From: a virus
Taxonomy: Duplodnaviria; Caudoviricetes
Direction: 5' to 3' (one strand)
Length of the DNA: 64,000 bases
IMG/VR virus record: IMGVR_UViG_3300033068_001920
Location: 14,929 to 78,928 of that record
Position numbers and translations under genes: made by a program
The notes under the pieces: model-generated
The model's database searches: none
Seen by the model: only the letters and a program-made list of their open reading frames with translations
Told to the model about the DNA's origin: nothing
In this document: positions 7,970-62,069 of the stretch, one piece after another
How positions within the stretch are numbered: the stretch's first letter is position 1
Layout: each line of letters opens with the position of its first letter

Positions 7970-7998
7970 GCATCCCGCTTATTCCCTTTCGTTATGCT

Positions 7999-9567
7999 TT
8001 ACTCGACATCCGCCAGCTCGGCGAGGGCCGACTCGCGCGCGGATTCAAGCCTGGCGTCGGCGCCCTCCGGCTTGTAGCCGTCGGCGACCATGTAGTGGAC
8101 GCCTTCCAGGAACGCGAACGCGAAGGTGTCCCAGATGTCGGGAGACTTGATCCCCTCGCCGCGCATGTCCTCTTTTTTCATCATGACGTAGCGCAACCCG
8201 CCAGCTTCGGCGAAGTGGTACGGCAAGCGCGATCCTTGATCCAGGATCTTCTCTTTCATTTGCCGGCTGATGCCTTGCGGCAGCACCACGCGCCCGGTGC
8301 GGATCGCGTCGCGAAGGCGCACGTTGGCGCACGCACGCAGGTTGTAGAAACGGTCCTTGTATTCTTTCTTGAAGCAAGGCTTGCCCCAGTCGATACGCTG
8401 GACCGGAACCCCTTGGCGTTCGATCAACTTCGCGACCGTGTGGCCGACGCCGCCATTGTCCACGTAAAGCGTCGCGTTCGACAACTTCCCGACCAGGTTG
8501 GCCAAGTCGCCGGCGAAGTCAATCTCATTCTTGGAGTTCGTGCAGATCGGCACCTCGATGAATTCGACACGGCGCGCATTCTCACCATGGTCATCGTCGC
8601 CGATCACCTTCGCGATCGTGGCCACCGAGTCATCGCGGTACTCGCCAAGGCCAACGTCGCCCAGCACGATCAGTCCGAACGGCTCGTCGTCGTGGATGAT
8701 TTGTCTCGGCTTGAATGCGGCTTCGATCTCGGTGCGCGTCAGAAGGTTCGCGCCGCTGTTTTCGGCGAATAGCCCAAGAACGCGGATCTGGTATTCAACA
8801 TCCTGCCGGCCGCCGCACTCGAGTTCGCGGTCCTTCAGCCACTTCATCGTGACGAAAGGTGAGTTCTCGGAATTGAATCTAAGGTTCGACCACGCACCGC
8901 CGGCGGCCTTCCGCAACTTGTGGTGGGTTTCGTAGAAGTAGCCGGCGTTGCGGACGCCCTGAGACGCGATAAGCGTGCGGTTACCGCCCTGCGTCTGCGT
9001 TCCGTTGATCACGTCGAAATGGCCATCGGGAACGCCCGCGGCTTCGTCGATGATGATCATCTGCCAGTAGCGGTGCTTGCCGGCAACCGACACCGCTTTG
9101 CCTTGCTGCATCGCGACTTGGCTGATGAACCACTGGCTTTCGTAACCTATAACCTCGACGCGCTCTTTCGAAATCTTGAAGTAGTCGCAAATCCATGCTG
9201 CCGGTCCGTTTAGCATCGCAATTCGGCAGTCCTCCATTTCCTTCCAGACACCCTCGGCAACCTGCTGAACTCGCGGCGCTCCGATGTAAGTGTTGGATCC
9301 GATTTGGACCTCGCCGTTTTCTATTCCATACGGGTGGCATAGAAGATGCCAAAGCGCGATTCGTCCGAACGAAAATGTTTTTCCAGTACCCGTGCCAGAC
9401 ACCACCGAAACGTTGGCTGTCGGATCATCGATCTCGAAAAAAAGTTCCTCCTGATCCGGACTCGGAACCAATGCGCAGACCTCCACGGCGAACCGAAGAG
9501 AATCTGCGTGGTAGCGCGCTACAAAATGCGGGTACCTTGGGTCCGCGAAGATGTTGACCTTGGCCAA
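7999..9567 (-). CDS. Terminase large subunit (P1 PacB-like)
   Basis: Walker A SGTGTGKT, Walker B IIIDEAAG, C-terminal nuclease with YVDNGGVG and SPDIWD. Confidence 0.9.
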   Translation of the reverse strand: MAKVNIFADPRYPHFVARYHADSLRFAVEVCALVPSPDQEELFFEIDDPTANVSVVSGTGTGKTFSFGRIALWHLLCHPYGIENGEVQIGSNTYIGAPRVQQVAEGVWKEMEDCRIAMLNGPAAWICDYFKISKERVEVIGYESQWFISQVAMQQGKAVSVAGKHRYWQMIIIDEAAGVPDGHFDVINGTQTQGGNRTLIASQGVRNAGYFYETHHKLRKAAGGAWSNLRFNSENSPFVTMKWLKDRELECGGRQDVEYQIRVLGLFAENSGANLLTRTEIEAAFKPRQIIHDDEPFGLIVLGDVGLGEYRDDSVATIAKVIGDDDHGENARRVEFIEVPICTNSKNEIDFAGDLANLVGKLSNATLYVDNGGVGHTVAKLIERQGVPVQRIDWGKPCFKKEYKDRFYNLRACANVRLRDAIRTGRVVLPQGISRQMKEKILDQGSRLPYHFAEAGGLRYVMMKKEDMRGEGIKSPDIWDTFAFAFLEGVHYMVADGYKPEGADARLESARESALAELADVE

Positions 9568-13249: not shown

Positions 13250-16023
13250 GCCGCGCCTCGCCGAGCGTCCAGCATGTCCACCTCGCGCTGAACGCGGTCA
13301 AGTATCCAAGAAACACAAAGCACGGCCCACGAGTTGCCGATCGCCTTGTACCGCGGGCCGTCGGCCGCCATGGCATAGACCTGGGCCTTGCCGTCTCCGC
13401 ATTTCACCGCGAAGCGGTAGGCCTTGTCTCGGGGGCCGCTGCTCCGCTGCAGCGCTTCGGCCATGCTGTCGAAGACCGGGATTGTGGCTTTCACCTTCGC
13501 CAGCGGCTTGGGCTTGCCTTTCCGGATCGGGATCAGCGTGTGGTCTGGATGGATTCCCTGTAGGCGCTCGCACTCTCGCGGGGTTAAGCGTCGAACGGCC
13601 ATTCCATGGGTGGCGATCGGCGCCGCTCTGGATCGGTCCGCACTGGTCGTCAGCGGTCTTGCAGCATCAGCGATCTCAAAAGTCCCGTTCTTGTAGTCGT
13701 CTGCCATGAACGCGACCGCCACTTGCCCGCCGGCATTCGCATGCGACCCACTGTGCCCCATCGCGCGAAAGGTCGGCGCCACGTCGCCAGCGTCGCCAGC
13801 GTCGCCGCCATGATCTTTACAGGAAAATGCGATGACCGGGACAAGATGTGCGTTTCCCCCAGGCGAATCTCCCCGAGAGCAACGCGTTTGAGTGATTTCA
13901 CCCGTGACAGATTGGTTATATGTGTCGAAGGCTATCGGCACCATGACGCTCGGCCCAGAGGACAGGCCGTCGCCGCTCCGCGTCCCAAGGGTCGCAGCGA
14001 CATCGCCCGTGATCTTGCCGTTGTACGTGTCGGTGCCCACCATGACCGGAATCAGTGGCGTCCCGCGCCCGGTACCGTCCTCGCTTGCGTCGAAACCGTC
14101 CGCGCGCAGCGTGTGCGTCGGCCCGTCGTACGCCACGGTTAAGTGGCCAGCCATCGCATGATCTACGTCAGCACCCCCACCTGCGGCTCGCAAGGTTCCT
14201 GCTGTAAGCGGGATATCATCTGTGCTGTAACCACCATGCTGACGAGAGCCGCCTGCAATGGTGCAGGCAACGTCTTGCGCCTCTTTTCTGCTCGGCGCAG
14301 TATCCCGGCGCACGCCTTCGGACTCAAAAAGTATTCTTCCGGGACTGAGTCCGTCTCTAGCACTTGCGACAACGAACACACGCTCGCGTCGTTGGGCCAA
14401 GCCGAAATATTGGGCATCAACAACCCGCCATGCGACTGTCCGCCGGGGGCCAGCAACAACACCTGCGACTGGCCAGCACGGAACGTGCACACCGGTGTCT
14501 TTTTTCCAGCGCCAGTGGGTAGAGGACCGTCCCGGTTTAGGTCGTGGGCCGGGTTCAATTGGATCCCGATCTCCGGCAAGCCCAGCAAGGAAGCAACCGA
14601 AAGCGTTGTCGTCGGTACTGAGGCATCCGGGTACGTTCTCCCACTGCACGATGCAGGGTTCGTCTCCATCGGCGATTCGAACATCGTCAATTGCATCGGC
14701 GATCTCGCAGAACGTCAGGGACAGCGCGCCCCGGGCGTCGGTAAGGGAATCGCGGTTACCCGCGAAGCTGAAGGCTTGGCAGTTGTGAACGACGACACCG
14801 TTCAGGATGTATGAGTTGTCGTCCGCAACTTCAATGTTGAAGACTTCCTGTTGCCCAACCTCACTGAAGTTGGTCACGCTGCGCAGAAGGTAGTTGTGCC
14901 TGACCCTGGATTTGCGCGAGGTGGCGCGGTCAAAGCCGCGGACTTGGAACCACTCTCGCTGATTAACGGTTCGGCCCTCTATGACTTTCGTAGGCGTAAC
15001 CTTAATCCGGGCCACGGATGCGCTGTACCCCTCGGCATTCAGAAGATCCGCCGCACCGTAGGCCAATGACCGGCTGGTCGTGGCGATTTGAACGCCGCTC
15101 TTGATTTTGCTGCCGTCTGTGTCGAGGTAGCCGCGAAGGATTTCAGCGCGAAGCGGATGTCCGAGCACCCACGCAGGGAGGTTTTTGTGGTACGCGAGGC
15201 GCCCAAAGTTCTCCTCCAACCAGTTAGCGAATCGAGTGTCATTGATCGTGACCCGAACCACTGATCGCTTTTCGCAAATGGAGTGACTGAAGTCCTCGCC
15301 AACAACCTCCAGCATCCTCTGGTATTTGGCCGGGTTCAGACTGAGGATAACCGCTCTCTTCGTCTTGCCCTTCCACTCCCGGATGTGGCCGTCACCGAGG
15401 TACATGCCAGCGAGATACATCGCCTGCCGCTGGTCGAACTCCGCGGATACCGCTTGCCCGGTGGTCTCGCCGTACTGCGTCATGGCGCACCACATGCGAC
15501 CCGGCATTTCCGATGCCTTGACCCACTCGGGATCGGGGCAGTGCTCGACCCTCGCGTAGGCGTTGCCGCGCTTGGTACTCTGGTTTCGGAAGGCGACCGA
15601 CAGGAACGGATGGTCGGGCGTCACCGTGATCGGTTCGCGGATTCCAACCGCATTGAACTCACCGACCGTCGCCAACTTCGAGCCGACCGCAAGGACAGGC
15701 TTCAGTCGCCCCTTGTGCGTCATGACGAGATCGCCGACCCGGACATGCTCTAGTGGGCGATACCCGTATTCGGTCAGAACCAGATGGCCTGCGGTGAAGC
15801 AAGGCGTTCCGCCGGTAAAGAACGGCGGCGCTTCCATCTCTCGGCTGCGGATCCTCGCAGGAATCGCGCGCATGTCTCCAACATTCGGGACATCCGGCCA
15901 ATGATGGGCAAGGACTTCTGAGGGGAACGCTTCGATCTCGGACAGCCACGCCGCCTTCCATCCGAGATGGCGCGAGGCCAGGCTCATTGCTTCGACGCCG
16001 CTGCAACAACTTCCGAATCTCAC
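13246..16023 (-). CDS. C5 cytosine DNA methyltransferase containing an intein
   Basis: Motif I FGSCCSG; motif IV GGTP/CQAFS split by the intein; ENVPG; QRRERVF; motif IX RRLTPRECERLQG; motif X RYKAIGNS. Confidence 0.92.
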   Translation of the reverse strand: MRFGSCCSGVEAMSLASRHLGWKAAWLSEIEAFPSEVLAHHWPDVPNVGDMRAIPARIRSREMEAPPFFTGGTPCFTAGHLVLTEYGYRPLEHVRVGDLVMTHKGRLKPVLAVGSKLATVGEFNAVGIREPITVTPDHPFLSVAFRNQSTKRGNAYARVEHCPDPEWVKASEMPGRMWCAMTQYGETTGQAVSAEFDQRQAMYLAGMYLGDGHIREWKGKTKRAVILSLNPAKYQRMLEVVGEDFSHSICEKRSVVRVTINDTRFANWLEENFGRLAYHKNLPAWVLGHPLRAEILRGYLDTDGSKIKSGVQIATTSRSLAYGAADLLNAEGYSASVARIKVTPTKVIEGRTVNQREWFQVRGFDRATSRKSRVRHNYLLRSVTNFSEVGQQEVFNIEVADDNSYILNGVVVHNCQAFSFAGNRDSLTDARGALSLTFCEIADAIDDVRIADGDEPCIVQWENVPGCLSTDDNAFGCFLAGLAGDRDPIEPGPRPKPGRSSTHWRWKKDTGVHVPCWPVAGVVAGPRRTVAWRVVDAQYFGLAQRRERVFVVASARDGLSPGRILFESEGVRRDTAPSRKEAQDVACTIAGGSRQHGGYSTDDIPLTAGTLRAAGGGADVDHAMAGHLTVAYDGPTHTLRADGFDASEDGTGRGTPLIPVMVGTDTYNGKITGDVAATLGTRSGDGLSSGPSVMVPIAFDTYNQSVTGEITQTRCSRGDSPGGNAHLVPVIAFSCKDHGGDAGDAGDVAPTFRAMGHSGSHANAGGQVAVAFMADDYKNGTFEIADAARPLTTSADRSRAAPIATHGMAVRRLTPRECERLQGIHPDHTLIPIRKGKPKPLAKVKATIPVFDSMAEALQRSSGPRDKAYRFAVKCGDGKAQVYAMAADGPRYKAIGNSWAVLCVSWILDRVQREVDMLDARRGAA
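14163..14696 (-). CDS. Overlapping +1-frame ORF resembling the M.EcoHK31I beta polypeptide
   Basis: VCSLSQVLETDSVPEEYFLSPKACAGILRRAEKRRKTLP, wholly inside the MTase gene; ATG at 14696. Confidence 0.7.
   Translation of the reverse strand: MQLTMFESPMETNPASCSGRTYPDASVPTTTLSVASLLGLPEIGIQLNPAHDLNRDGPLPTGAGKKTPVCTFRAGQSQVLLLAPGGQSHGGLLMPNISAWPNDASVCSLSQVLETDSVPEEYFLSPKACAGILRRAEKRRKTLPAPLQAALVSMVVTAQMISRLQQEPCEPQVGVLT
14782..15801 (-). mobile_element. Intein (340 aa) with LAGLIDADG homing endonuclease
   Basis: Starts CFTAGHLV, ends GVVVHN followed by Cys+1; YLAGMYLGDG and ILRGYLDTDG blocks. Confidence 0.93.
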
Positions 16024-42487: not shown

Positions 42488-43444
42488 TTACAGGCCCGCG
42501 CGCTTGCGGATCTTCACCGACTTGGCGCGGCGCATCTGCGCGACCGCCGAGTGCGACTTCCGGAGCATCTTCTTGACTGCCATCTTCTGCTTCGCGTTCA
42601 GGCGCACCGTGCCGGACACCCGCTTGTTGATGCGGACCTTCTTGCCGCGGCGCACGACGATCTTCTTTTTGTACGTCGCGTCGAAGACCTTCGCCTCGGC
42701 ACCGGCCTTCTCGGCGAACTCGAGGATCTTGGCGTCGGTCATCTTCATCCAGTCCGGCACTTTGGTCATCGAGGCGAAGGTGGTCGAATCCAGAACGACG
42801 CCGTTGAAGTTGATGCCGACATCGCCCGATGCATCCACGACGCGGTGGGCGCCAGCGGAATCCATCGCGGCTTCATCGCTGCCGTCGCCGAACACGAACT
42901 CGTCGATCTCTTCCGCGGCGGCGGCGTCGCCGTCGGGAAGTGCGGAAAGCGCGAGTTCCTGGATCGATTCGGCCAAGTCGTTGTCGAATTCTTCCAGCAG
43001 CGAGACCACATCGGATTCCGGGGCGCCCTTCGCGATGAGGTAGTCCGCGGCGACGTTGGCGGCCTGATTCATGATGTCGGCTTCGGCATCGCTGACCTCG
43101 CCATCCATGTCCGCATCGGCGATGCCGGCGAGCAGGCTGAACAGGCGATCGCCGATGCCTTCACCATCGTCGAGATCAGCCGCCGTGGTTTCGGCCCACT
43201 CCTGAACCGCGGCGACCGCCTTGAGCGCGATGTCGCTGTCCTGGTAGGCGCCGGCCTCATCGAGAACGGGCGCAGCTGCGGCGTCCAGCACCGCCTTGGC
43301 AGCGGCATCAGCAGCGGCATCAGCAGCGGCTTTCGCCTCGGCGTCCGCCTTGTTTTTTGCGTCATCGAGAACCGCGGCAGCGGCCTTCGGCTTCGCGGCC
43401 GTGATGTCCTTGATGGCTTCATAAGCCGGGTGTCTGCGCAACAT
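42488..43444 (-). CDS. P1 gp21-like structural protein
   Basis: Immediately after sheath; acidic middle and very basic C-terminus (VRRGKKVRINKR...RRAKS.KIRKRAGL). Confidence 0.65.
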   Translation of the reverse strand: MLRRHPAYEAIKDITAAKPKAAAAVLDDAKNKADAEAKAAADAAADAAAKAVLDAAAAPVLDEAGAYQDSDIALKAVAAVQEWAETTAADLDDGEGIGDRLFSLLAGIADADMDGEVSDAEADIMNQAANVAADYLIAKGAPESDVVSLLEEFDNDLAESIQELALSALPDGDAAAAEEIDEFVFGDGSDEAAMDSAGAHRVVDASGDVGINFNGVVLDSTTFASMTKVPDWMKMTDAKILEFAEKAGAEAKVFDATYKKKIVVRRGKKVRINKRVSGTVRLNAKQKMAVKKMLRKSHSAVAQMRRAKSVKIRKRAGL

Positions 43445-45753: not shown

Positions 45754-47409
45754 TTACAAGCCGAAGTTGGTGATGTTGATCACCGCGGCACCCTTGGCCG
45801 AAGGCACGTGCGGGTTCACGCTGGTGAAGTTGCGGGCGTAGAACGCGGTCCGCGACTTCAGATCGGTACCCATCGCCACCGGCAGGTTGGTCGGCGCGAC
45901 CGCGTCGCCCATGACGATCGGGCAGCGTGCGACCTGATTCGAACGGCCGATGCAGAGCATCTGCGCGGTGCCCGAACCTTCTTCGACGATCTTCGGCGAG
46001 TAGTAGACCTCGTAGCGACCGAAGGCGCGGCCGACGCGGTAGATGCCAGGACGCACGGTGATGCCGGACGACACGAACAGTTCCGGCGGCAGGCTCTGGA
46101 ACTGGGCCGCCAGCTTCTTGCCCACGTACATGTGGGTGATGCCGTGGTCCATCGTATCTTCGGCCATCTGCTGATCGGCGACGCCGATGACGGCCATGGC
46201 GTCCTGCCATACCTGCGCGCGCGTTTTCTGCTCCTTCTGACCGGCCCAGTCGAAGTCGTACGTCCGCGCGTTGTTGAGGGCCAGGTTCTTGAGCTTCTGC
46301 AGCGCCATGTAGTGGCGTTCCATCGCGAACTGGTTGCGGACCGCCATCATGTTCTCGCCTTCCAGGCTCAGCCCCAGTTCGTTGGCGTACTGGGTCTTGC
46401 TGTCCACGGTCTGCGAGGCGTGGACACGCCACGGCACCGCGAAGAGCGAGAAGGTCTGGACCTGGGTCAGGATGCTCGGTGCCAGCTGCGGCGCGACTTC
46501 GTAATCGATGTAGCCTTCGGCGCTGACCACGGTGCCGACCGGCAGCGCGGGCGAGAATGCCAGCGAAACGGCGCCGGTCGCCACGGTCACGGTGCCGCTG
46601 ATCGCGTAGTCGGTGCCGGCGATGTTGATGCTGCCGGAGAGCGGGCTGTTGGCGACGGTGGCCGCGGTGTTCGGCAGTTCGTAGGCGCACGGGTAGCCAT
46701 TGACCAGAACGATCGTGCGGGCGCGCAGCAGCGGCGTATCCTCGGAACCGCCGACGACGCCGGTGATCTTGCCGGTCGCGGTCGCGCGATCGCCAGCCAG
46801 CGTCAGGGTGACGGTGCGCTCGGAACTGATGTAGGGCTTGCCGATGTTGACGCCGTCCAGGAGCTCGCCGACGATGTAGCCGCCGGCCAGCGAACCGGCC
46901 TGGTGGCTCACGATGCCGAGCTTGGCTTCGTTGGAACCGGTGTCGGTCGGCAGCAGGGTGCCGAACGGGATCATCTCGGCGATGGCGCTGGTCATCGCCA
47001 CGACGATACGGTTGGCTTGGGCGCTCAGCTGGTCGTGGTGATCGGTCGAGCCGACCGAGTCGAACAGGTGCCCATTGGCGTCGATTCGCTTCGACGCGGC
47101 GAGCGCCTGCTGGCACGCGGCCTGCAGCACGTCGCCGGTCGGCAGCGCGCCGTGTTCCTGCAGGAAGATATTGGAACCCATCAGCACCGAGTCCAGGACT
47201 TGGGCCTGGCGGTCTTCCGGAACCAGCGCGACGATCTCCTGCAATTCTTTCGGGAGATCGCCCTTTTCGATGAGCGACTTGCTGGTGCTCTTGATGGCAG
47301 CGGAGTCCAGCGCGGCGCTGTTACCGTCGCAGGCCGTCGCATGGGAATGGTCGATGAAGTTTTCGAGCTCGGCTGCCCGAGGGTCGATGTACTGTGCGCG
47401 AGTGGTCAT
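45754..47409 (-). CDS. Major capsid protein (P1 gp23-like)
   Basis: 551 aa; order capsid-sheath-gp21 as in P1. Confidence 0.8.
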   Translation of the reverse strand: MTTRAQYIDPRAAELENFIDHSHATACDGNSAALDSAAIKSTSKSLIEKGDLPKELQEIVALVPEDRQAQVLDSVLMGSNIFLQEHGALPTGDVLQAACQQALAASKRIDANGHLFDSVGSTDHHDQLSAQANRIVVAMTSAIAEMIPFGTLLPTDTGSNEAKLGIVSHQAGSLAGGYIVGELLDGVNIGKPYISSERTVTLTLAGDRATATGKITGVVGGSEDTPLLRARTIVLVNGYPCAYELPNTAATVANSPLSGSINIAGTDYAISGTVTVATGAVSLAFSPALPVGTVVSAEGYIDYEVAPQLAPSILTQVQTFSLFAVPWRVHASQTVDSKTQYANELGLSLEGENMMAVRNQFAMERHYMALQKLKNLALNNARTYDFDWAGQKEQKTRAQVWQDAMAVIGVADQQMAEDTMDHGITHMYVGKKLAAQFQSLPPELFVSSGITVRPGIYRVGRAFGRYEVYYSPKIVEEGSGTAQMLCIGRSNQVARCPIVMGDAVAPTNLPVAMGTDLKSRTAFYARNFTSVNPHVPSAKGAAVINITNFGL

Positions 47410-47885: not shown

Positions 47886-48190
47886 GTGTTTGCCTTCATG
47901 AATTCAATGAGTCGTTTTCGCCTGTCGCCGAGTCCGGAATCGATGTAGTTGAAGTAGACGACATAAGGGGGTTGGGAGTCTTTTGCTGACAGCGCGATAA
48001 CCGCCTTGGCAGTGTCCATATCGTCCGGGTTGTAGGGCGGGGTGGGTGCTGCCGCCCGGCTCACGCCGTAGGATTCGTTGATCGACTTCTCGGCGCGCGC
48101 CGCCGCCGCCGCTGTGATTGCCGCCGCTTCCTGGTCGGTAGACCCCTTGGGGATCAGCGCACTGTCGCCGGCGGCGACGTTGCGGCCCTC
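47882..48190 (-). pseudogene. Out-of-frame C-terminal continuation of the DarA-like gene
   Basis: Coding-type codon pattern switches into this frame at ~48190 with no start codon. Confidence 0.55.
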
Positions 48191-50184
48191 TGGAACTGCA
48201 GGGTGCGGTTGTACTGGTCCCCATCGGTCAGGAACGCAAGCGCGTCCTGCTGGACGTTGACCGTCTTGAAGGTCTTCTTCGCGAGCGCGCCACCGTCGGA
48301 CTCCTCCCATCCGGCATCCTTCAGTGCTGAAACCACAGCAGATGTCATGGCGTCGGCCGCGATCACGCGCGCGAGAGCGGCTCCCTCTTCGGTCCACTCC
48401 ACCTGCGTGGTTGAACTGCGTCGTAGCCAGCCTTTTGAAACGCCAGCATTGATCACAGAGTTCACCGACGGATCAGACCACCAGACCGTCATGTCGCGGG
48501 TCTTGCGCATCGCATCCGACACTTCTGCGATGGTTGCGTCTCGACTCAGGTCCGCTATCGGCTGGGCTTGGCGAGGATCGATGGCATTGACGGCAGCGTC
48601 CAAGCGCTTCGCGTTCTCTTCGAACGATGCGTCAGGATTGAACGCGACCGTGACCAGCGGGTTATCCCCGTGACGGGCCTGCATCTCGCCATCGATCAGT
48701 TTTGCCGAAAGTGCCCGGTTCCCTTCCGGGTTGATGTGGTTCACATTGCCGCCGCCGATCGTCTTGCTGACCCAGTAATACTCATCCGGCCCGCCCGCCC
48801 GCTGAAGCGCAGGATTCGCACGGTTCTGCCAGCCGATGTCGATCAGCGCGGCCAGCAACTTGTGCCGATCTGAGTAGGGAGCCTTCTCGGGACCTTCCGC
48901 AGACGCCTTCGCGTCACCAGCGCTGATCGGCTGCCCTTCGGACGCAGGTTCACCGCCCTCCAGAACAGCCGGCGGCGCGGCGCGCTTCGCTTCGACCTGC
49001 TCTTCCAGCGTTGCGATCTCGGTGCCCAGCGCGTCCAGTTCGGCCTGTTTCGCCGCCACGGAGGCCTTGCTGGCTTCAATGCCGCGAACACGCTCGGTGC
49101 GGCGCGTGTTCGCGGCCTGGAACCGGGCGGAGTTGGCTTCGACCAGGCGCATGATCCGGCGCGCGACCTCGCGCGGGTTCAGTTCCTGCCCGCGCTCCGG
49201 CGCGACGACGATCGTCACGTCCTTCTTGTTGAGCATCCACTTCCAGCTGACCATCTCGTCGTCCGGCGTGAGCTTGTTCGGCGTCGCGTCGGGGTTGTGG
49301 AAGTAGGCGGTAACGGTCTGGCCGTCGTCCATTTCGAAGATGGCCGCGACGTTCGTCGTCCCGCGCTGCTTGAACGGGGGCGTGATCTGCAGGACACCGG
49401 GGCGCACTGCCTTGCTGGCGGCGCGCATGATCACCTGCATCTGCCCCATCTTGCGCTCCAGCCGGTTAAGCGGCACGACCAGCGCATCGAGCACGGCCTC
49501 GCCCTCGGATGCCTCCAGAACGTCGGCCTGCGTCACCGCATCCAACAGCAGGTGGTCGCCGGCATCGTCGCGGCGCATCGCGTAGAGCAGCTGCGGCAGC
49601 GTCATGTTGACCGGGTTGGCAGTGGAATCCCAGGTGACATCATTCATGGTCGCGGTTCCATCGTAGGGCAGTTGGTCGGAGGTCAGGGGGATGGCGTGGT
49701 TGCCGAACTTGAGCCACCACTTCAATTGATCGATGGTGCAGGGCACGATACCCATCTCCGTCGGCCCCGGCTTTTCGTAGCTGTTGCGGTAGGCGATCAC
49801 GGCTGAATCCGAGTCCGGGAACGCCATGAGGATCTTGTGCTCGTCGAACCCGCTGCCGTCGGGCTTCGCTTGGTTCACGACGTAGGCCATGCCTGACTCG
49901 GGCCACGGGCCGACGTACACGTCCAGTTCGTCGCCATCGGCGCCGCGGGTCTTTTCGATGTAGCCGTAGTGCGCTTGGCAGATCACCGACCACGGCTTGC
50001 CGTCTTCCTTGCCGGACCGGCGCTGTCCCTGCGGCGTTTCGATCGCGACCCGCAGCCCGTGAATCTCGCACCTGCCTTTTTTGTAGTTGCCGGCGCGGAG
50101 ATTCGCCAGAGACGGCTCCGGGATGTTGTTGATGCCGTAGGCACCGGAGTGAGCCGCGCTCGAAATCTGGGCGAAATTGTCCAT
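48154..50184 (-). CDS. DarA-like virion protein with N-terminal phage PPase-like domain
   Basis: NYKKG...IETP...HYGYI..T.GADGDELDVYVGP...FDEHK; DarA-like DGQTV..YFHNPD.TP...DEMVSWKWMLNKKDVTIVVAPERG. Confidence 0.8.
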   Translation of the reverse strand: MDNFAQISSAAHSGAYGINNIPEPSLANLRAGNYKKGRCEIHGLRVAIETPQGQRRSGKEDGKPWSVICQAHYGYIEKTRGADGDELDVYVGPWPESGMAYVVNQAKPDGSGFDEHKILMAFPDSDSAVIAYRNSYEKPGPTEMGIVPCTIDQLKWWLKFGNHAIPLTSDQLPYDGTATMNDVTWDSTANPVNMTLPQLLYAMRRDDAGDHLLLDAVTQADVLEASEGEAVLDALVVPLNRLERKMGQMQVIMRAASKAVRPGVLQITPPFKQRGTTNVAAIFEMDDGQTVTAYFHNPDATPNKLTPDDEMVSWKWMLNKKDVTIVVAPERGQELNPREVARRIMRLVEANSARFQAANTRRTERVRGIEASKASVAAKQAELDALGTEIATLEEQVEAKRAAPPAVLEGGEPASEGQPISAGDAKASAEGPEKAPYSDRHKLLAALIDIGWQNRANPALQRAGGPDEYYWVSKTIGGGNVNHINPEGNRALSAKLIDGEMQARHGDNPLVTVAFNPDASFEENAKRLDAAVNAIDPRQAQPIADLSRDATIAEVSDAMRKTRDMTVWWSDPSVNSVINAGVSKGWLRRSSTTQVEWTEEGAALARVIAADAMTSAVVSALKDAGWEESDGGALAKKTFKTVNVQQDALAFLTDGDQYNRTLQFQRAATSPPATVR

Positions 50185-55822: not shown

Positions 55823-57496
55823 TCAGGCCGACCGCTCGAAAGAGCCGATCGTTACCGCAACTGTGGTGCCCGCGAACTGGTTTTCGAGCACGTCGGACCA
55901 GACCGCATTGAACCCGGGCAACAACGCCTTTCCGCGCGCCGACGCCGGCAGGATCGCGACGATGCGCCCGCCCGCGGCAAGTAGCCGGGACGCGTGCTCC
56001 AGGTGAGCCTGCCAGCGGCCAGCGCTGAACGGCGGATTGAGTACGATGCGATCGAACTTCGGATCCGTCGGCGCCTGCAGGAAGTCGGCGACCGTGACCG
56101 AATGCCCTTTCGCGCGCAGGATCGCCGCGTGGAGTTCGCTGATCTCGATGCAGTGCGTCGAACCACGCGGCATCAGGTCGGCGAGGTTGCCGATTCCCGC
56201 GCTCGGCTCGAGCCACGACATGTCCGGCGCGCTGCCGGCGCTGGCCAGCGCGACCGCATGCGCCGCGACGTTCTCCGGCGTAGGGTAGAACTGGTGGGAC
56301 TGGTGGTCCGGGATCTCGCCGGAGCAGATGATGTCGTCCAGCACTTCGCTGGTGTCGTAGTCGAACTTCCAGTAATCGAGATTGCCGTCCTTCACCCAGA
56401 CGCCGCCGATGGCCTGCAGAATGGCTTCGGCTTGGGCCTCGGCCACCTTGTCGCGCTCGGTGTGGTCAAACCTGAGTGTGCGCGGGATGTTTTCGAACTT
56501 CGGCTCATTCCAACCCGGGTTCTGCCGCCGGCGGTAGCCGGGCTTCATGCCGGACAGCAGCGACAGCACCGCGAACGGGATCGGCTTGCTGAAAACCTTG
56601 TGGTCCTTGACCTTCCGCGGCTTTTTCCGCTCGACGAAATCGTGAGGGATCGTCATCGGGTACAGGTTCGCCAAGATCGCGTTGAGCCGCCCGGCCATCT
56701 CCGGGTGCACCTCAAGATGCGCAGTGCCAACGCCTGCGTAGACGCGGATGCGCAGCGCGCCGCCGTCCACCGAAACCCATTTTCCCGCGCGCGCCTTCGC
56801 GACCCTGATCACGCCTTCGGTGACGCCGTGCCCGGGTTCGTCGCGGCCCATAAACTTCGCGATGACGCAGCGCAAATCGTTGATCACGCCGGCAGTGCCC
56901 CACTCAACGGAACCGTAGGAGGACAGCGCACGATTCAGGATCATTCGCTGCCGGAAGCCCTTGGGGTTATTCGTGACGTGCGTGCGGCTGAGGGACTGAA
57001 AGATGCCGTCCACGCGCTCGCCAAAGAACTGGGCACGCATTGCGATCAGGTTTTCAAGGGTTGCGCGCGCAGTGTCTGCAGTGAACTCCGGAATCGGTTC
57101 GATCTCCCACTCGGTTCGGCTGTACTGCTTGCGTTTGCCCATGGGGTTGCGGATCTGTTCGTACCATTCGGTCTTCCGCTTCTGCGGCATGTAGTCCAGC
57201 ACGTCGGTGAGCTTCAGCGCGCGGTCCCAGAACTCGGCATCCAGTTCCGCAATCGCCGGTTTCAATTCGAAGAGCTCGGCCACGGTGTTCGGCATGCTGT
57301 GCCGGCCTTCCGGCGCATTGGCTTCGACGAAATAGCGCAGCACGCCGCTGCAGCACTCGGAATTGACGGCCGCGGCCATCGCCTCCAGCCGCTGGCGCGT
57401 CGCGCTGTAGTCGGACATCAGGTTGTTGAACAGGTCGAACGGGACCGGGGCGAAAAACTCCTCGGTATTGACCAGCCAGCCTTCAATCGCATCCAT
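55823..57496 (-). CDS. DUF4942-domain protein with C-terminal N6/N4 methyltransferase
   Basis: QFYPTP, WLEPSAGIGNL, IVLNPPF; N-terminal FW...L..T.V...MP. Confidence 0.85.
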   Translation of the reverse strand: MDAIEGWLVNTEEFFAPVPFDLFNNLMSDYSATRQRLEAMAAAVNSECCSGVLRYFVEANAPEGRHSMPNTVAELFELKPAIAELDAEFWDRALKLTDVLDYMPQKRKTEWYEQIRNPMGKRKQYSRTEWEIEPIPEFTADTARATLENLIAMRAQFFGERVDGIFQSLSRTHVTNNPKGFRQRMILNRALSSYGSVEWGTAGVINDLRCVIAKFMGRDEPGHGVTEGVIRVAKARAGKWVSVDGGALRIRVYAGVGTAHLEVHPEMAGRLNAILANLYPMTIPHDFVERKKPRKVKDHKVFSKPIPFAVLSLLSGMKPGYRRRQNPGWNEPKFENIPRTLRFDHTERDKVAEAQAEAILQAIGGVWVKDGNLDYWKFDYDTSEVLDDIICSGEIPDHQSHQFYPTPENVAAHAVALASAGSAPDMSWLEPSAGIGNLADLMPRGSTHCIEISELHAAILRAKGHSVTVADFLQAPTDPKFDRIVLNPPFSAGRWQAHLEHASRLLAAGGRIVAILPASARGKALLPGFNAVWSDVLENQFAGTTVAVTIGSFERSA

Positions 57497-58092: not shown

Positions 58093-60132
58093 TTACGCGG
58101 CGAGCGGTTCCTTGCTCCCCAGCATCTTGAGCGCGGCGCGGAACGATTCCGCGGCATTTTCTTCCAGTTCGGCCTGAGCGATGTTGCCCTCGGCCAGGTT
58201 GATCGGGTAGTTCGTTTCCACGGTGTCCAGCGCGTTCTCGAGCGTTGCGCGCGCATGCGACAGATCGGCGTCGTCCAGCGTGTCGCCGGCGGCGAGGCGC
58301 GCGGCGATCGCTTGAGCTTCGACCACGCCGACATCATCGAAGCTGTTGCACGGGACATCGACAGCGTCCAGTACGGACGCGGCCTTCGCATCCAATTCAG
58401 CGCTTGACGCGGAATCGTACGCTCCCTTGGCCATGTGAAACTTCATGTCGTCGGACCATTCGTTGCGACCATTATTCGTTGGGTCGTGAAGAACACCTGT
58501 TGCGACCATTGTCTCCAGCACCATCTTGGCCTTCTTTTTATTGAACCCGGCTTCCTTTGCGAACGATGCGACGGTATGGGGCTTTTCGCGGAGTATCGCT
58601 CTGGCAGCCTTTACCATCTCGACCCCGCTTTTCGGGATTCCGCTTTTCAGGATCTCTTTTTTCGCTGCTGCGGAGTTCAACTTGCCGCCAGCGCCCCCGA
58701 TCACATTGCCGCCGCGGATCAGCAACTTGCTGCCGTTCTCGGTGGATGCCCAGCGGTCGGTCTTCGGATCGAACGGCGCCCCGGCCGAGTCCAGTGCCGC
58801 GGCGACCTCCTTGCCCTTGTCGGTGAGCCAGTTCATGCCGTCGCCGCGCTCCACGAAGCCGCGCTCTACCAGCGTATCCCGCGAGTCCTTTGCGGGGATG
58901 TCCCCATCCTCCAACTTTCCGCGCTTGGCGAAGGCGACCAGGTTGTCCCACTCGCCGCCGTCGAATGTCTCGCCGGCGGCTTCGTGCGTCGAATCCAGCA
59001 CCGAGGCATTCTCGCGGATCTCGCCGGCATAGGCCTTGACCGAGTCCAGCGCGCCGGCCGCCGGCCGCACCAGGGCCGAATCGACATCCGGGATCACCGC
59101 ATGCGCGCGTACGCCGCCCGTGGCGTCCAGCGCGATCGGTAGCGCCACGTCATAGTTCACCTTGCCGGCACGGAAGCTGGCGCGCACGACGCGGCCGCGC
59201 AAGGGCATCTCGCCGCCGTCGCCGCTCGACAACATCAGGTCCACCTCGGCGGACAACTGGTGCGCCGAAGGCAGCGCGCTCGCGGCGCGGTCCATCACGG
59301 TGGCATCGTCCACGACGCGGAAGCCGAGCCACGATGTCGGCCAGGCCTCGGGCGGCTGGGCGAACAGTTCGCCGGCGGAATCCAGCATGCTATCCGTCAG
59401 GTCCAGGTTCCCCCACAGAATATTGCCGTCCACATCGATACCGTGTGAGCGCTCCACCCAATGCAGATTCTTTTTGGTCTCGTGCTCTTTGTCCAGCAAC
59501 TTCCGGCCGGCTCCGCGGTTTGCCCATGCGTCGTACTTGTTCTTCGCGGCCGTCAGGCTTTCGCCAAGAAATGCGGGGTCGGAGTTATCCTTGAATCGCA
59601 CGTAAAAGCCAGGCTTGTTGCCGCTGGCTGCCGAATCCATCACCGGCTCGCCGAGCTCTGCGCGCAATTCGGCAACCCGGGCCTTCGCCGCGGCGATCTC
59701 GGCGTCCAGCGTGGACTCTGCCTCCTGCAGGCGCTGCTCCATTTTCGGCGCTGCGGTGGTGATGCCCTTCGGCAGCGCGACCTTGGTGCGCGCCATCTTG
59801 GCCTGGAACTTGGCCCGGCCGGCGTCCAGCGCCTTGGCGATCTCGCCGACTGCCTTGATCTGGTTGTCTTGGTTCTTGATCGCCAGCGCGGCGCCGTTGA
59901 CCCGGACTTCGAAGATGTCGCCGGTGGTCTTGACCCCCAGCAGCACCTTCTGGTTGTCGGTGAAGGTGATCAGCACCTGGCGGTAGTTCACGCCGGAGGT
60001 GCGCCGCGTCTTCGGATCGATGTCGCTTGACGCCACGGTTGCGCCGGCGCGAGTGAAGGCCTGGACCAGCCGCTTCACGGCCGCGGAGCCTGCCTTGAGG
60101 TCGTCGAATGAGATCAGGAAATCGGTGGCCAT
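58093..60132 (-). CDS. Hdf/DarA-C-like head protein with multi-module extension (679 aa)
   Basis: N-terminal ~160 aa with RRTSGVNYRQV..TF.DNQKV...VK.TGDIFEVRVNG resembles P1 Hdf/DarA-C. Confidence 0.7.
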   Translation of the reverse strand: MATDFLISFDDLKAGSAAVKRLVQAFTRAGATVASSDIDPKTRRTSGVNYRQVLITFTDNQKVLLGVKTTGDIFEVRVNGAALAIKNQDNQIKAVGEIAKALDAGRAKFQAKMARTKVALPKGITTAAPKMEQRLQEAESTLDAEIAAAKARVAELRAELGEPVMDSAASGNKPGFYVRFKDNSDPAFLGESLTAAKNKYDAWANRGAGRKLLDKEHETKKNLHWVERSHGIDVDGNILWGNLDLTDSMLDSAGELFAQPPEAWPTSWLGFRVVDDATVMDRAASALPSAHQLSAEVDLMLSSGDGGEMPLRGRVVRASFRAGKVNYDVALPIALDATGGVRAHAVIPDVDSALVRPAAGALDSVKAYAGEIRENASVLDSTHEAAGETFDGGEWDNLVAFAKRGKLEDGDIPAKDSRDTLVERGFVERGDGMNWLTDKGKEVAAALDSAGAPFDPKTDRWASTENGSKLLIRGGNVIGGAGGKLNSAAAKKEILKSGIPKSGVEMVKAARAILREKPHTVASFAKEAGFNKKKAKMVLETMVATGVLHDPTNNGRNEWSDDMKFHMAKGAYDSASSAELDAKAASVLDAVDVPCNSFDDVGVVEAQAIAARLAAGDTLDDADLSHARATLENALDTVETNYPINLAEGNIAQAELEENAAESFRAALKMLGSKEPLAA

Positions 60133-61043: not shown

Positions 61044-61178
61044 GTTTTTCCGCTTCTTTCCTGCTGATTCAATCGACAGAGTAGGAGCCCAGCGCTGCGC
61101 TGATTTATCCGACTTTCCGAAGCGAAAGCTAGCGCCGAATCGCAGCCCGTGAGATGACTTCTAAGCATCATGTTCACT

Positions 61179-62069
61179 ATGAACCGGATGCCTCTCGCCA
61201 AGCGTGCCCAGATCCTCGGATTCCTCGTCGAAGGCATGAGCCTGCGTTCGGCGTCCCGGCTGGCGGACTGTTCGATCAATACCGTGACCAAGCTGCTGGT
61301 GGATGTTGGCGCGGCCTGCGCTGAGTTTCAGGACGGCGCGCTGCGCAACCTGCCCTGCAAGCGCATCCAGTGCGACGAAATCTGGTCGTTCGTTGGCGCG
61401 AAGCAAAAGAACGTTCCGGATGACCGCAAGGGCGAGTTCGGCATCGGCGACGTATGGACCTGGACGGCGATCGATGCCGATTCCAAATTGGTCGCCTCAT
61501 GGATGGTCGGCACGCGCGACGGCGACGCCGCCAAGGCCTTTATCGGCGATCTGGCGGATCGTCTGGCGAACCGGGTGCAACTGACCACCGACGGCCACAA
61601 GGTCTACGTACAAGCCGTGGAAGACGCATTCGGCGGCGCTGTGGACTACGCGATGCTGGTCAAGCACTACGGCGAAGGTCCGCAGTCCCCGGAACGCAAA
61701 TACAGCCCGGTCGAGTTCGTCTCTGCTGAAAAGAAGCGCATCACGGGCAAGCCGGACAAGGCCCACGTTTCGACCAGCTACGTCGAGCGCCAGAACCTCA
61801 CGATGCGGATGTCCATGCGCCGCTTCACGCGCTTGACGAACGGCTTCTCAAAGAAGGTCGAGAACCACGCCGCCGCCATCGCGCTGCACTTCATGCACTA
61901 CAACTTCGGACGCATCCACAAGACCCTTCGCGTCACACCTGCGATGGAAGCGGGCGTTTCGGATCACGTCTGGACGTTGGAAGAGATCGCGGCGCTTGTG
62001 CCGGAGCCGGTCGCAAAGAAGCGCGGGCCGTACAAGAATCGCACGCCGCGCGATTCGGAAAGCGATTGA
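61179..62069 (+). CDS. IS1-family DDE transposase
   Basis: N-terminal HTH; IQCDEIW; TTDG; TSYVERQNLTMR...RFTR.TN.FSKK. Confidence 0.92.
   Translation: MNRMPLAKRAQILGFLVEGMSLRSASRLADCSINTVTKLLVDVGAACAEFQDGALRNLPCKRIQCDEIWSFVGAKQKNVPDDRKGEFGIGDVWTWTAIDADSKLVASWMVGTRDGDAAKAFIGDLADRLANRVQLTTDGHKVYVQAVEDAFGGAVDYAMLVKHYGEGPQSPERKYSPVEFVSAEKKRITGKPDKAHVSTSYVERQNLTMRMSMRRFTRLTNGFSKKVENHAAAIALHFMHYNFGRIHKTLRVTPAMEAGVSDHVWTLEEIAALVPEPVAKKRGPYKNRTPRDSESD

Follow-up and report, generated by a model that had tools for sequence, protein, structure and literature searches.

How might a phage come to carry a string of small, separate protein domains behind one conserved protein of its head, and what could it do with them? 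The question is raised by a single gene in a 64,000-nucleotide stretch of viral DNA, hereafter the window, which comprises the last 64 kb of one 78.9-kb virus record (IMG/VR record IMGVR_UViG_3300033068_001920, positions 14,929 to 78,928; GC content of the record, 62%). The gene (58093..60132, (-) strand) has an ATG start in the open reading frame (ORF) list, and its translation, a protein of 679 aa here designated P0001, opens with a domain related to the Hdf protein of phage P1 and continues with five modules, which we call cassettes, joined by a short recurring motif. A first-pass annotation of this DNA had suggested that one targeting domain brings a string of exchangeable modules into the head, where a protease frees them. 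The joints of P0001 coincide with predicted domain boundaries, its cassettes are shuffled among homologs at the motif, and the same motif recurs in the capsid propeptide, in a DarA-like protein and in the homolog of the P1 prohead protease, Pro; on the analogy with P1 we consider that the motif is probably a site for that protease. A fusion of genes through assembly error was also considered as the source of so long a frame, and it was ruled out by the existence of long homologs and by an unbroken frame signal: the GC content at third codon positions (GC3) keeps its in-frame pattern over the full length of P0001.

The joints of P0001

The first 166 residues (59635..60132 (-)) form the Hdf core, an alpha+beta DarA_N domain followed by a helix (131-159) and ending in ...ELGEPVMD|S, where the bar marks the joint. 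Residues 8-105 match the Pfam profile DarA_N (PF18788) with a score of 52.7 bits, the gathering cut-off being 27, residues 16-160 match the PHROG family 'Hdf-like' (phrog_1620, E 4e-33), and residues 9-150 are matched by the P1 Hdf chain itself (PDB 9ukm_H; phmmer, E 3e-9). The model of the core also superposes on the P1 DarA chain 9ukm_I (VIA Z 10.0, root mean square deviation (rmsd) 3.3 A over 116 aa), and its isoelectric point (pI) is basic, at 9.6. Because the domain matches both DarA_N and P1 Hdf, it is of the Hdf/DarA-N type and not DarA-C: the 'Hdf-like' half of its earlier label agrees with the phrog_1620 match and with the homology to the P1 chain, and the 'DarA-C-like' half was mistaken, the Pfam profile being DarA_N. 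The core is predicted to be a capsid-bound carrier. In the helix behind DarA_N, the pair L142-D143 ('TLDAEIA'; codons 142-143, 59704-59709 (-)) is nearly invariant in 96 relatives and is lacking in P1 Hdf; its role might be that of a structural contact or of a cryptic site.

Behind this core the first-pass annotation had drawn module borders at a series of 'xDS' linkers, and MDS165, LDS250, LDS362, LDS379, LDS447, YDS572 and (V)LDA588 are all found at the residues it gave (tripeptides in P0001 are numbered by their first residue). The joints of the five modules, as we define them, are MDS165, LDS250, LDS362, LDS379, LDS447, LDA580 and LDA588. The dipeptide DS occurs nine times in the protein against 3.4 expected from composition, and there are further motif-like tripeptides at TDS246, VDS350, KDS415 and LDA580, of which KDS415 was rejected as a joint since it lies within a confidently folded domain. 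The linkers are thus real, and their better form is (A/V)(L/M)D|(S/A/G)(A/V); YDS572 lies in a linker and departs from this consensus. When 414 distinct instances from the protein family are compiled, the joint reads (A/P)-(A/V/T)-(L/M)-D|(S/A/G)-(A/V). The second residue after the bar (P2') is A or V in 75% of them and the third before it (P3) is A, V or T in 66%, neither position having been part of the search pattern, and immediately before D[SAG] leucine is enriched 3.6-fold and methionine 3.3-fold. The codons of the joints vary synonymously (CTG/TTG/ATG, GAC/GAT, TCG/TCC/AGC/GCC/GCG/GCT); the constraint is therefore on the peptide and not on the DNA, and the notion that the motif is a DNA repeat was discarded on this ground.

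Whether motif positions agree with domain boundaries was a check set beforehand. An AlphaFold2 (AF2) model of P0001, built from a 55-sequence alignment with a mean predicted local distance difference test score (pLDDT) of 72.7, contains domains at residues 1-160, 172-245, ~290-355, 381-450, 455-545 and 593-679, with low-confidence linkers at 163-171, 246-286, 348-379, 554-577 and 585-592. Past residue 160 there are eight [LM]D[SAG] sites, numbered here by their Asp, and six of them (166, 251, 363, 380, 581 and 589) fall within these linkers or at their edges; given that about 30% of the sequence is linker, the binomial probability of such a coincidence is ~0.01. The remaining two are found at the end of a winged helix (448) and within a beta domain (336). 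The predicted boundaries thus coincide with the motifs. The site at 336 (LDA335) was itself considered as a joint, and since it is buried in a confidently folded beta domain it is probably not a site.

The second line of evidence comes from the relatives of P0001, which comprise 21 close homologs and a wider set of more than 150 cluster representatives. In all homologs returned, the match to the N-domain ends at query residues ~167-172, and 33 bare homologs of 156-165 aa stop just before the point where the first motif would stand. Among the 104 representatives with at least 60 residues past the N-domain, 82 have [LMIV]D[SAGD] in the junction window, against the ~19% that composition predicts. 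When 107 extended homologs are cut at the motif, the pieces sort into 37 recurring cassette families (median 76 aa) and 138 singleton cassettes, arranged in 73 architectures. Ten pairs of cassette families occur in both orders, and the 24 nearest homologs all differ in their cargo architecture while the identity of their N-domains reaches 94%. The joins are exact: in P0005 ('...PVMDS-THEAAG...') the N-domain is fused directly to the winged-helix cassette that in P0001 follows LDS379. The gain and loss of modules at the junctions, which the first-pass annotation had put forward as something to be looked for in homologs, is therefore seen, and the content behind the carrier is anything but invariant.

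The same conclusion can be put in quantitative terms. An initial breakpoint test on all high-scoring segment pairs (HSPs) was noisy, with a roughly 2-fold excess, and it was tightened by an identity threshold, by collapsing endpoints and by the introduction of control motifs. With HSPs of at least 65% identity, endpoints collapsed to 259 and a window of 4 aa from the motif, 107 of the homology breakpoints lie at the motif where 29.8 are expected (ratio 3.6); six control motifs put through the same test gave ratios of 1.15-1.5. When the identity threshold is raised to 70%, 45% of the breakpoints are no more than 3 aa from the motif, against 9% in the null.

The motif in the capsid, DarA-like and protease proteins

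The record holds a P1-like gene set, with a tail sheath, a PmgG-like protein, a major capsid protein (MCP) related to P1 gp23 and a DarA-like protein, and its nearest deposited phage is Xanthomonas phage Rb1. The homologs of the P1 portal and of Pro are located just beyond the edge of the window, that of Pro 66 kb upstream of the Hdf-like gene. In P1 itself, the maturation cut of gp23 was placed between E120 and S121 by Edman sequencing (PMC9024508), and the local sequence there is A-M-L-E|S-V. Pro likewise cleaves P1 DarA, the cryo-EM model of which starts from residue 70 (PMC12810830). The DarA sequence (L004:905-2824 (-)) contains L-L-E68|A69, with HMDG315 as the sole further match to the loose pattern, and on sequence grounds LLE68|A69 is the predicted DarA cleavage site.

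The MCP of the record (551 aa; 45754..47409 (-)) is 43% identical to that of Rb1 and 23% identical to P1 gp23; the PHROGs label of this ORF is 'unknown' (phrog_1014). Three copies of the motif stand in its N-terminal propeptide, AALD|SA (36), VLD|SV (74) and LFD|SV (117), and the last of these aligns eight columns upstream of P1 E120|S121. The Rb1 capsid protein has AMD|SA at 114, within ten alignment columns of the P1 site. The presence of three copies in the first ~117 residues suggests that the propeptide is cut into pieces. In the P1-like plasmids of P. putida (pKF715C), P. atacamensis, P. psychrotolerans and Ideonella the MCP N-terminus has two or three sites, the last at ~98-126; that of Burkholderia pBVIE05 has sites at 33 and 77 and none at the ~98-126 position. 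The residue at P3 follows the lineage. In the phage studied here it is A or V in capsid and Hdf joints alike; in the P. putida and P. atacamensis elements it is M, with 'AMLDS' joints and 'NMLDS' or 'GMLDS' in the capsid; and in P. psychrotolerans it is T ('ITLDG' and 'LTLDA' with 'VTLDS'). Such co-variation of capsid and Hdf joints is what would be predicted if one protease reads both, the sample being small.

The DarA-like protein (676 aa; 48154..50184 (-)) has an InPase domain (PF18823) at 29-159 and a Pfam DarA_N domain at 231-352, and between the two is a cluster of motifs, LLLD|A215, VLE|A224 and VLD|A233. The BLAST offset to P1 DarA (+147) sets D215 opposite P1 E68. From this alignment the protein appears to carry an N-terminal cargo, InPase, in place of the 68-residue pro-piece of P1 DarA. 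Over the catalytic half, the Pro homolog (positions 7989-8900 of the record, (-) strand) shares 36% identity with P1 Pro, and it belongs to phrog_1801, the PHROG of P1 pro; its C-terminal tail contains TLD|AV and VLD|AV, and P1 Pro has LLE|S223 and HLE|A230 in similar places. In the 19.5-kaa proteome of the record the strict motif occurs 13 times; four of these copies are in P0001, and the capsid propeptide and Pro have two each. The joints of P0001 fit the form of the P1-type Pro site, hydrophobic-(L/M)-(D/E)|(S/A), with seven exposed sites that all have D, and by this analogy the joint motif is probably a prohead-protease site.

Motif copies were also observed in other proteins. A 318-aa protein of phrog_1053, encoded beside the sheath gene (42488-43444 (-)), contains the strict motifs AVLD|AA (53) and AAMD|SA (194), and its Rb1 homolog contains four. 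Possibly this protein too is processed; alternatively, its copies of the motif could be unrelated. Upstream of the window (L005:6070-8043 (-)), a 657-aa Phage_lysozyme2 protein whose gene overlaps the end of the Pro gene has LFD|S217 and ELD|S515, and it may be a virion-borne lysozyme. The C-terminus of the P1 portal (prt, L003) has ILD|A494, LMD|S543 and ILE|S558.

The cassettes and their surroundings

The first cassette, M1 (aa 167-251; 59380..59634 (-); 85 aa, 9.5 kDa), lies between MD|S166/167 and LD|S251/252 and corresponds to the AF2 domain 172-245. It belongs to family F10, found also in P0002, P0004, P0007 and P0009. M2 (aa 252-363; 59044..59379 (-); predicted mass 11.6 kDa) has a disordered lead followed by the beta domain at ~290-355, and its family, F23, is shared with P0003, where it stands directly behind the N-domain joint. 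Next comes a 17-aa spacer of low pLDDT (aa 364-380; 58993..59043 (-)), bounded by ALD|S363/364 and VLD|S380/381; such motif-to-motif spacers, of 4-24 aa, are common among the homologs.

M3 (aa 381-448; 58789..58992 (-); 7.4 kDa) is a MarR-type winged helix of phrog_4365 and the most frequently used cassette, its family F2 having 32 members. Its fold, predicted with a pLDDT of 88-97, matches MhqR (9qdr_B) with VIA Z 10.5 and an rmsd of 1.4 A over 67 aa, and dozens of further MarR chains match residues 380-451 of P0001 at Z 8-10. In a profile search it reaches only HTH_45, at E 0.05, and the module is acidic (pI 4.5).

M4 (aa 449-581; 58390..58788 (-); 14.0 kDa) is basic, with a pI of 9.6, and is predicted to consist of beta hairpins and three helices, the latter at 503-545 in a low-confidence fold (pLDDT 55-72). 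When residues 449-679 were modeled separately, the region 449-589 stayed at pLDDT 42-72. M4 matches Pfam DUF7342 at E 6e-4, under the cut-off of that family, and its structural neighbors in the Atlas are winged helix-turn-helix regulators with scores below 0.9 and TM 0.43-0.47; it is possibly a winged helix. Of the two winged helices that had been read from the sequence, the one at 381-446 is therefore confirmed as MarR-type and the one at ~490-570 is tentative. M4 is shared with P0006, where it is joined straight to the N-domain at '...VLDS'. The greater AT-richness noticed earlier for the ~490-570 module is borne out by its GC3, which over codons 481-570 drops to 0.64 (the value for M4 also) against a genome mean of 0.80 (sd 0.077); when 829 windows of 90 codons are ranked by GC3, this one falls within the lowest 25. 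This dip fits a foreign origin and does not date the acquisition, the 'recent capture' suggested before having been deduced from composition.

An 8-aa spacer (aa 582-589; 58366..58389 (-)), between ELD|A581/582 and VLD|A589/590, leads to the last cassette, M5 (aa 590-679; 58096..58365 (-); 9.4 kDa), an acidic three-helix bundle of phrog_3376 with pI 4.1 and pLDDT 88-96. Its family, F3, has 23 members, is usually the C-terminal cap and is always directly preceded by 'VLDA|VDVP'. In a wide VIA structure search with the separate model of 449-679 this bundle filled the list, and the matches to 590-679 were generic helical bundles only. When M5 was searched against longer proteins all the matches were carriers of DarA_N. 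In the Rb1 'internal head protein', aa 640-695 have 67% identity to M5 and stand between MDS603 and MDS698, so that this cassette can also be borne by a carrier of the DarA type. The Rb1 protein is 1221 aa long (L001:25173-28838 (+)), and the Hdf gene of Rb1 is bare (160 aa).

No Pfam or PHROG match was obtained for M1 or for the modules 252-380 and 449-589. A Foldseek search of the full model against the PDB and BFVD retrieved nothing beyond P1 head chains, regulators of the MarR type and one 'internal head protein'. Pfam searches of the 96 relatives yielded DarA_N and, rarely, LPD3, DUF3175, InPase and Nmad5, and nothing else; no peptidase family was detected in P0001 or in these relatives at E <= 1e-3.

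Downstream of the P0001 gene is that of a 557-aa DNA methyltransferase (55823-57496 (-); phrog_6263, E 3e-189), and upstream is a transposase-like ORF (61170-62069 (+)) with a weak match to phrog_720. A single partial 4.4-kb metagenome locus (L006), of architecture N-domain|F5|F2|F3, is related to P0001; searches of the viral and genome contig sets with P0001 or with alignments gave no related loci.

Proposed release in the head, its alternatives and known systems

We think it fairly probable, reasoning from P1, that Hdf carries cargo into the prohead and that Pro frees the cassettes there. P0001 would then be a polyprotein processed in trans, composed of an ordinary Hdf, five cassettes of 7-14 kDa and two spacers. 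During prohead assembly the Hdf core would take the entire string into the shell, where Pro would cut after the Asp of every exposed motif, as it would in the capsid propeptide and in the DarA-like protein. The mature Hdf would be left with the same extent as the stand-alone Hdf proteins, and ~55 free copies of each cassette would remain in the head, to exit with the DNA at infection; in the infected cell they might oppose host defenses or bind DNA or proteins. Recombination at the joints would add, remove, duplicate or reorder cassettes and leave the carrier unharmed. The cassettes would be exchangeable because the joint is a self-contained signal of ~5 residues in a disordered linker, and the extreme mosaicism of the family would thereby be explained.

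Several observations weigh against this scheme. The P1 Hdf, which has neither motif nor cargo, is reported to be unprocessed (PMC12810830), and cleavage at the joints is argued from an analogy with P1 in which Glu stands in place of the Asp found here. The Pro homolog has no Pfam match. Folded parts, too, contain motif-like tripeptides (LDA102 and LDA142 from helices of the N-domain, LDA335, and ELLDGV184 in the mature capsid), so the tripeptide alone is insufficient; copies in such regions are presumably protected from cutting. In about 20% of the homologs with extensions the first joint has a non-canonical sequence in place of the motif (for example 'MTDS'), and only 41% of the collapsed breakpoints are on the motif, the other 59% being elsewhere. 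Of the cassettes, the winged helix alone could be matched to a fold with confidence, and none matches a known anti-defense family in Pfam, PHROG and fold searches, the PADLOC and NCBIfam libraries not having been searched.

The unprocessed Hdf of P1 and the tripeptides in folded parts would be at home in another explanation, in which P0001 is an uncleaved multidomain 'polyvalent' protein, a 72-kDa chain tethered to the capsid wall via Hdf, and the motif is a linker, a helix cap or a recombination scar. There is precedent for it, since polyvalent proteins, including some with DarA-N, can be packaged unprocessed, as is the N4 vRNAP (Iyer et al., PMC5512222). We nevertheless consider it unlikely, at perhaps one chance in a handful. 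A plain linker does not explain why the extended motif stands at the P1 cleavage position of the capsid propeptide, in the pro-region of DarA and in the tail of the protease, nor why P3 co-varies between capsid and Hdf joints across lineages. It also leaves unaccounted for the frequent tandem motifs with their short spacers and the lack of comparable breakpoint enrichment for [LM]E[SAG] and the other controls.

It is less probable still, and in our judgment rather doubtful, that the cassettes are cut off and act within the head itself, as scaffold-like or space-filling elements, in setting head size, in balancing the charge of the DNA, or as pieces degraded and expelled like a capsid delta domain. 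Hdf and DarA do affect the determination of head size in P1 (PMC12810830; PMC9024508), the capsid propeptides bearing the same motif are scaffold remnants, and most cassettes have no recognizable function; three of the five are acidic, which speaks against DNA condensation and suits an inert filler. However, the extreme turnover of cassettes on nearly identical carriers resembles diversifying selection of the arms-race type more than a structural role, some members of the family bear the polyvalent effector domains InPase, LPD3 and Nmad5, and the folded winged helix and three-helix bundle have been kept as discrete families. That shuffling is driven at the DNA level, by recombination signals in the form of short conserved linkers whose by-product is the peptide, seems to us very improbable indeed. 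Some joints of the gene do share up to 12 nt of identity, such as GCGCTGGACGCC at codons 101-104 and 334-337; yet what is kept at the joints, through synonymous codon change, is the peptide, which is also present in proteins that are not mosaic, the capsid propeptide and Pro, and persists across lineages at 30-40% protein identity.

Should the joints be protease sites, as in the release of cassettes by Pro that we favor, the specificity of the P1-family prohead protease could be read as L/M-D/E|S/A/G, a single specificity would unify the sequenced P1 capsid site with the predicted site of DarA, and one could foretell which mature proteins make up the virions of P1-like phages and phage-plasmids. 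Hdf would be a carrier of cargo, and so more than a structural or antirestriction accessory, and phages would possess a simple means, for which no new packaging signal is needed, to try out, exchange and dose the proteins that they inject. Cutting the homologs at the motif would then be an alignment-free harvest of hundreds of candidate injected proteins for anti-defense screens. A broader and more tentative proposal, to which we give somewhat less than even weight, is that in P1-like phages of Xanthomonadales, Pseudomonas and Burkholderiales (A/V)(L/M)D|(S/A)(A/V) is a portable code: a protein placed behind Hdf or before DarA would be packaged at ~55 copies in each head, to be set free by Pro and then injected, and the cassettes (at least 37 families and 138 singletons) would be a large reservoir of anti-defense or host-takeover proteins for the first minute of infection. 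If so, the code would offer a means, already in place, of putting proteins of choice into phage heads.

The closest known system is the Dar antirestriction system of P1 (Piya et al. 2017, as cited in PMC12810830), in which cryo-EM (9ukm/9vz0) has revealed 55 DarA-Hdf pairs lining the inner surface of the capsid (PMC12810830). The two systems have in common the DarA_N domain with its following helix, homologous MCP, sheath, PmgG, portal and Pro proteins, a DarA-type partner gene, and the motif at the point where P1 DarA loses its N-terminal piece to Pro, with E instead of D. They differ in that the P1 Hdf has 203 aa and no cargo, whereas that of P0001 bears 513 extra residues in five cassettes, and in that P1 packages its separate Dar proteins (DarB, Ulx, DdrA/B) by binding, whereas here there is a covalent fusion, apparently followed by cleavage.

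The polyvalent proteins were defined by Iyer, Burroughs, Anand, de Souza and Aravind (2017; PMC5512222), who listed DarA-N and InPase among the phage-type domains and stressed mosaicism; in their account processing is the work of embedded peptidase domains, MPTase or others, and no junction motif is described. P0001 falls within their definition, having six AF2 domains that include the listed DarA-N, and its relatives carry LPD3, InPase and Nmad5. As in the polyvalent proteins, many unrelated domains are set on one virion-associated chain, with mosaicism and with the idea of processing into functional units. Unlike in these, the P0001 family has no embedded peptidase that could be found, the signal at its joints fits a separately encoded prohead protease, and its cassettes are much smaller (median 76 aa) and mostly outside the described families. 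The polyvalent concept would thus be extended from embedded peptidases to cutting in trans by a head protease, in the manner of viral polyproteins.

In phage T4, the internal proteins IPI-III and Alt each have a capsid targeting sequence of ~10 residues that is removed by gp21 at (L/I)xE, with one cargo per gene. The features shared with the scheme proposed here are an N-terminal targeting element, release by a protease after an acidic residue and injection with the DNA. The T4 tag is discarded, whereas the 166-aa structural Hdf would stay in the capsid and would bring in several cargoes per chain; P0001 has this folded domain instead of a short T4-type targeting peptide with its (L/I)xE site, and its joints, (L/M)D|(S/A/G), have L or M directly before D. 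The phiKZ-like giant phages also have many head-internal proteins, such as the substrates of SPN3US gp245, that the prohead protease cuts, in some of them more than once, behind a short consensus whose last residue is acidic (PMC5694885, PMC10052503). The literature searched, including the titles and abstracts of PMC5694885 and PMC10052503, has no description of shuffled, site-delimited cassettes on a conserved carrier, Hdf included. The giant phages differ in belonging to another capsid lineage and in using another motif.

In the picornavirus-type polyproteins, the 3C sites are short conserved junction motifs that are situated in linkers and cut in trans. P0001 would resemble such polyproteins of eukaryotic RNA viruses in its trans-cut junctions; it is unlike them in its content, which is fixed and essential in the RNA viruses and accessory and hypervariable here.

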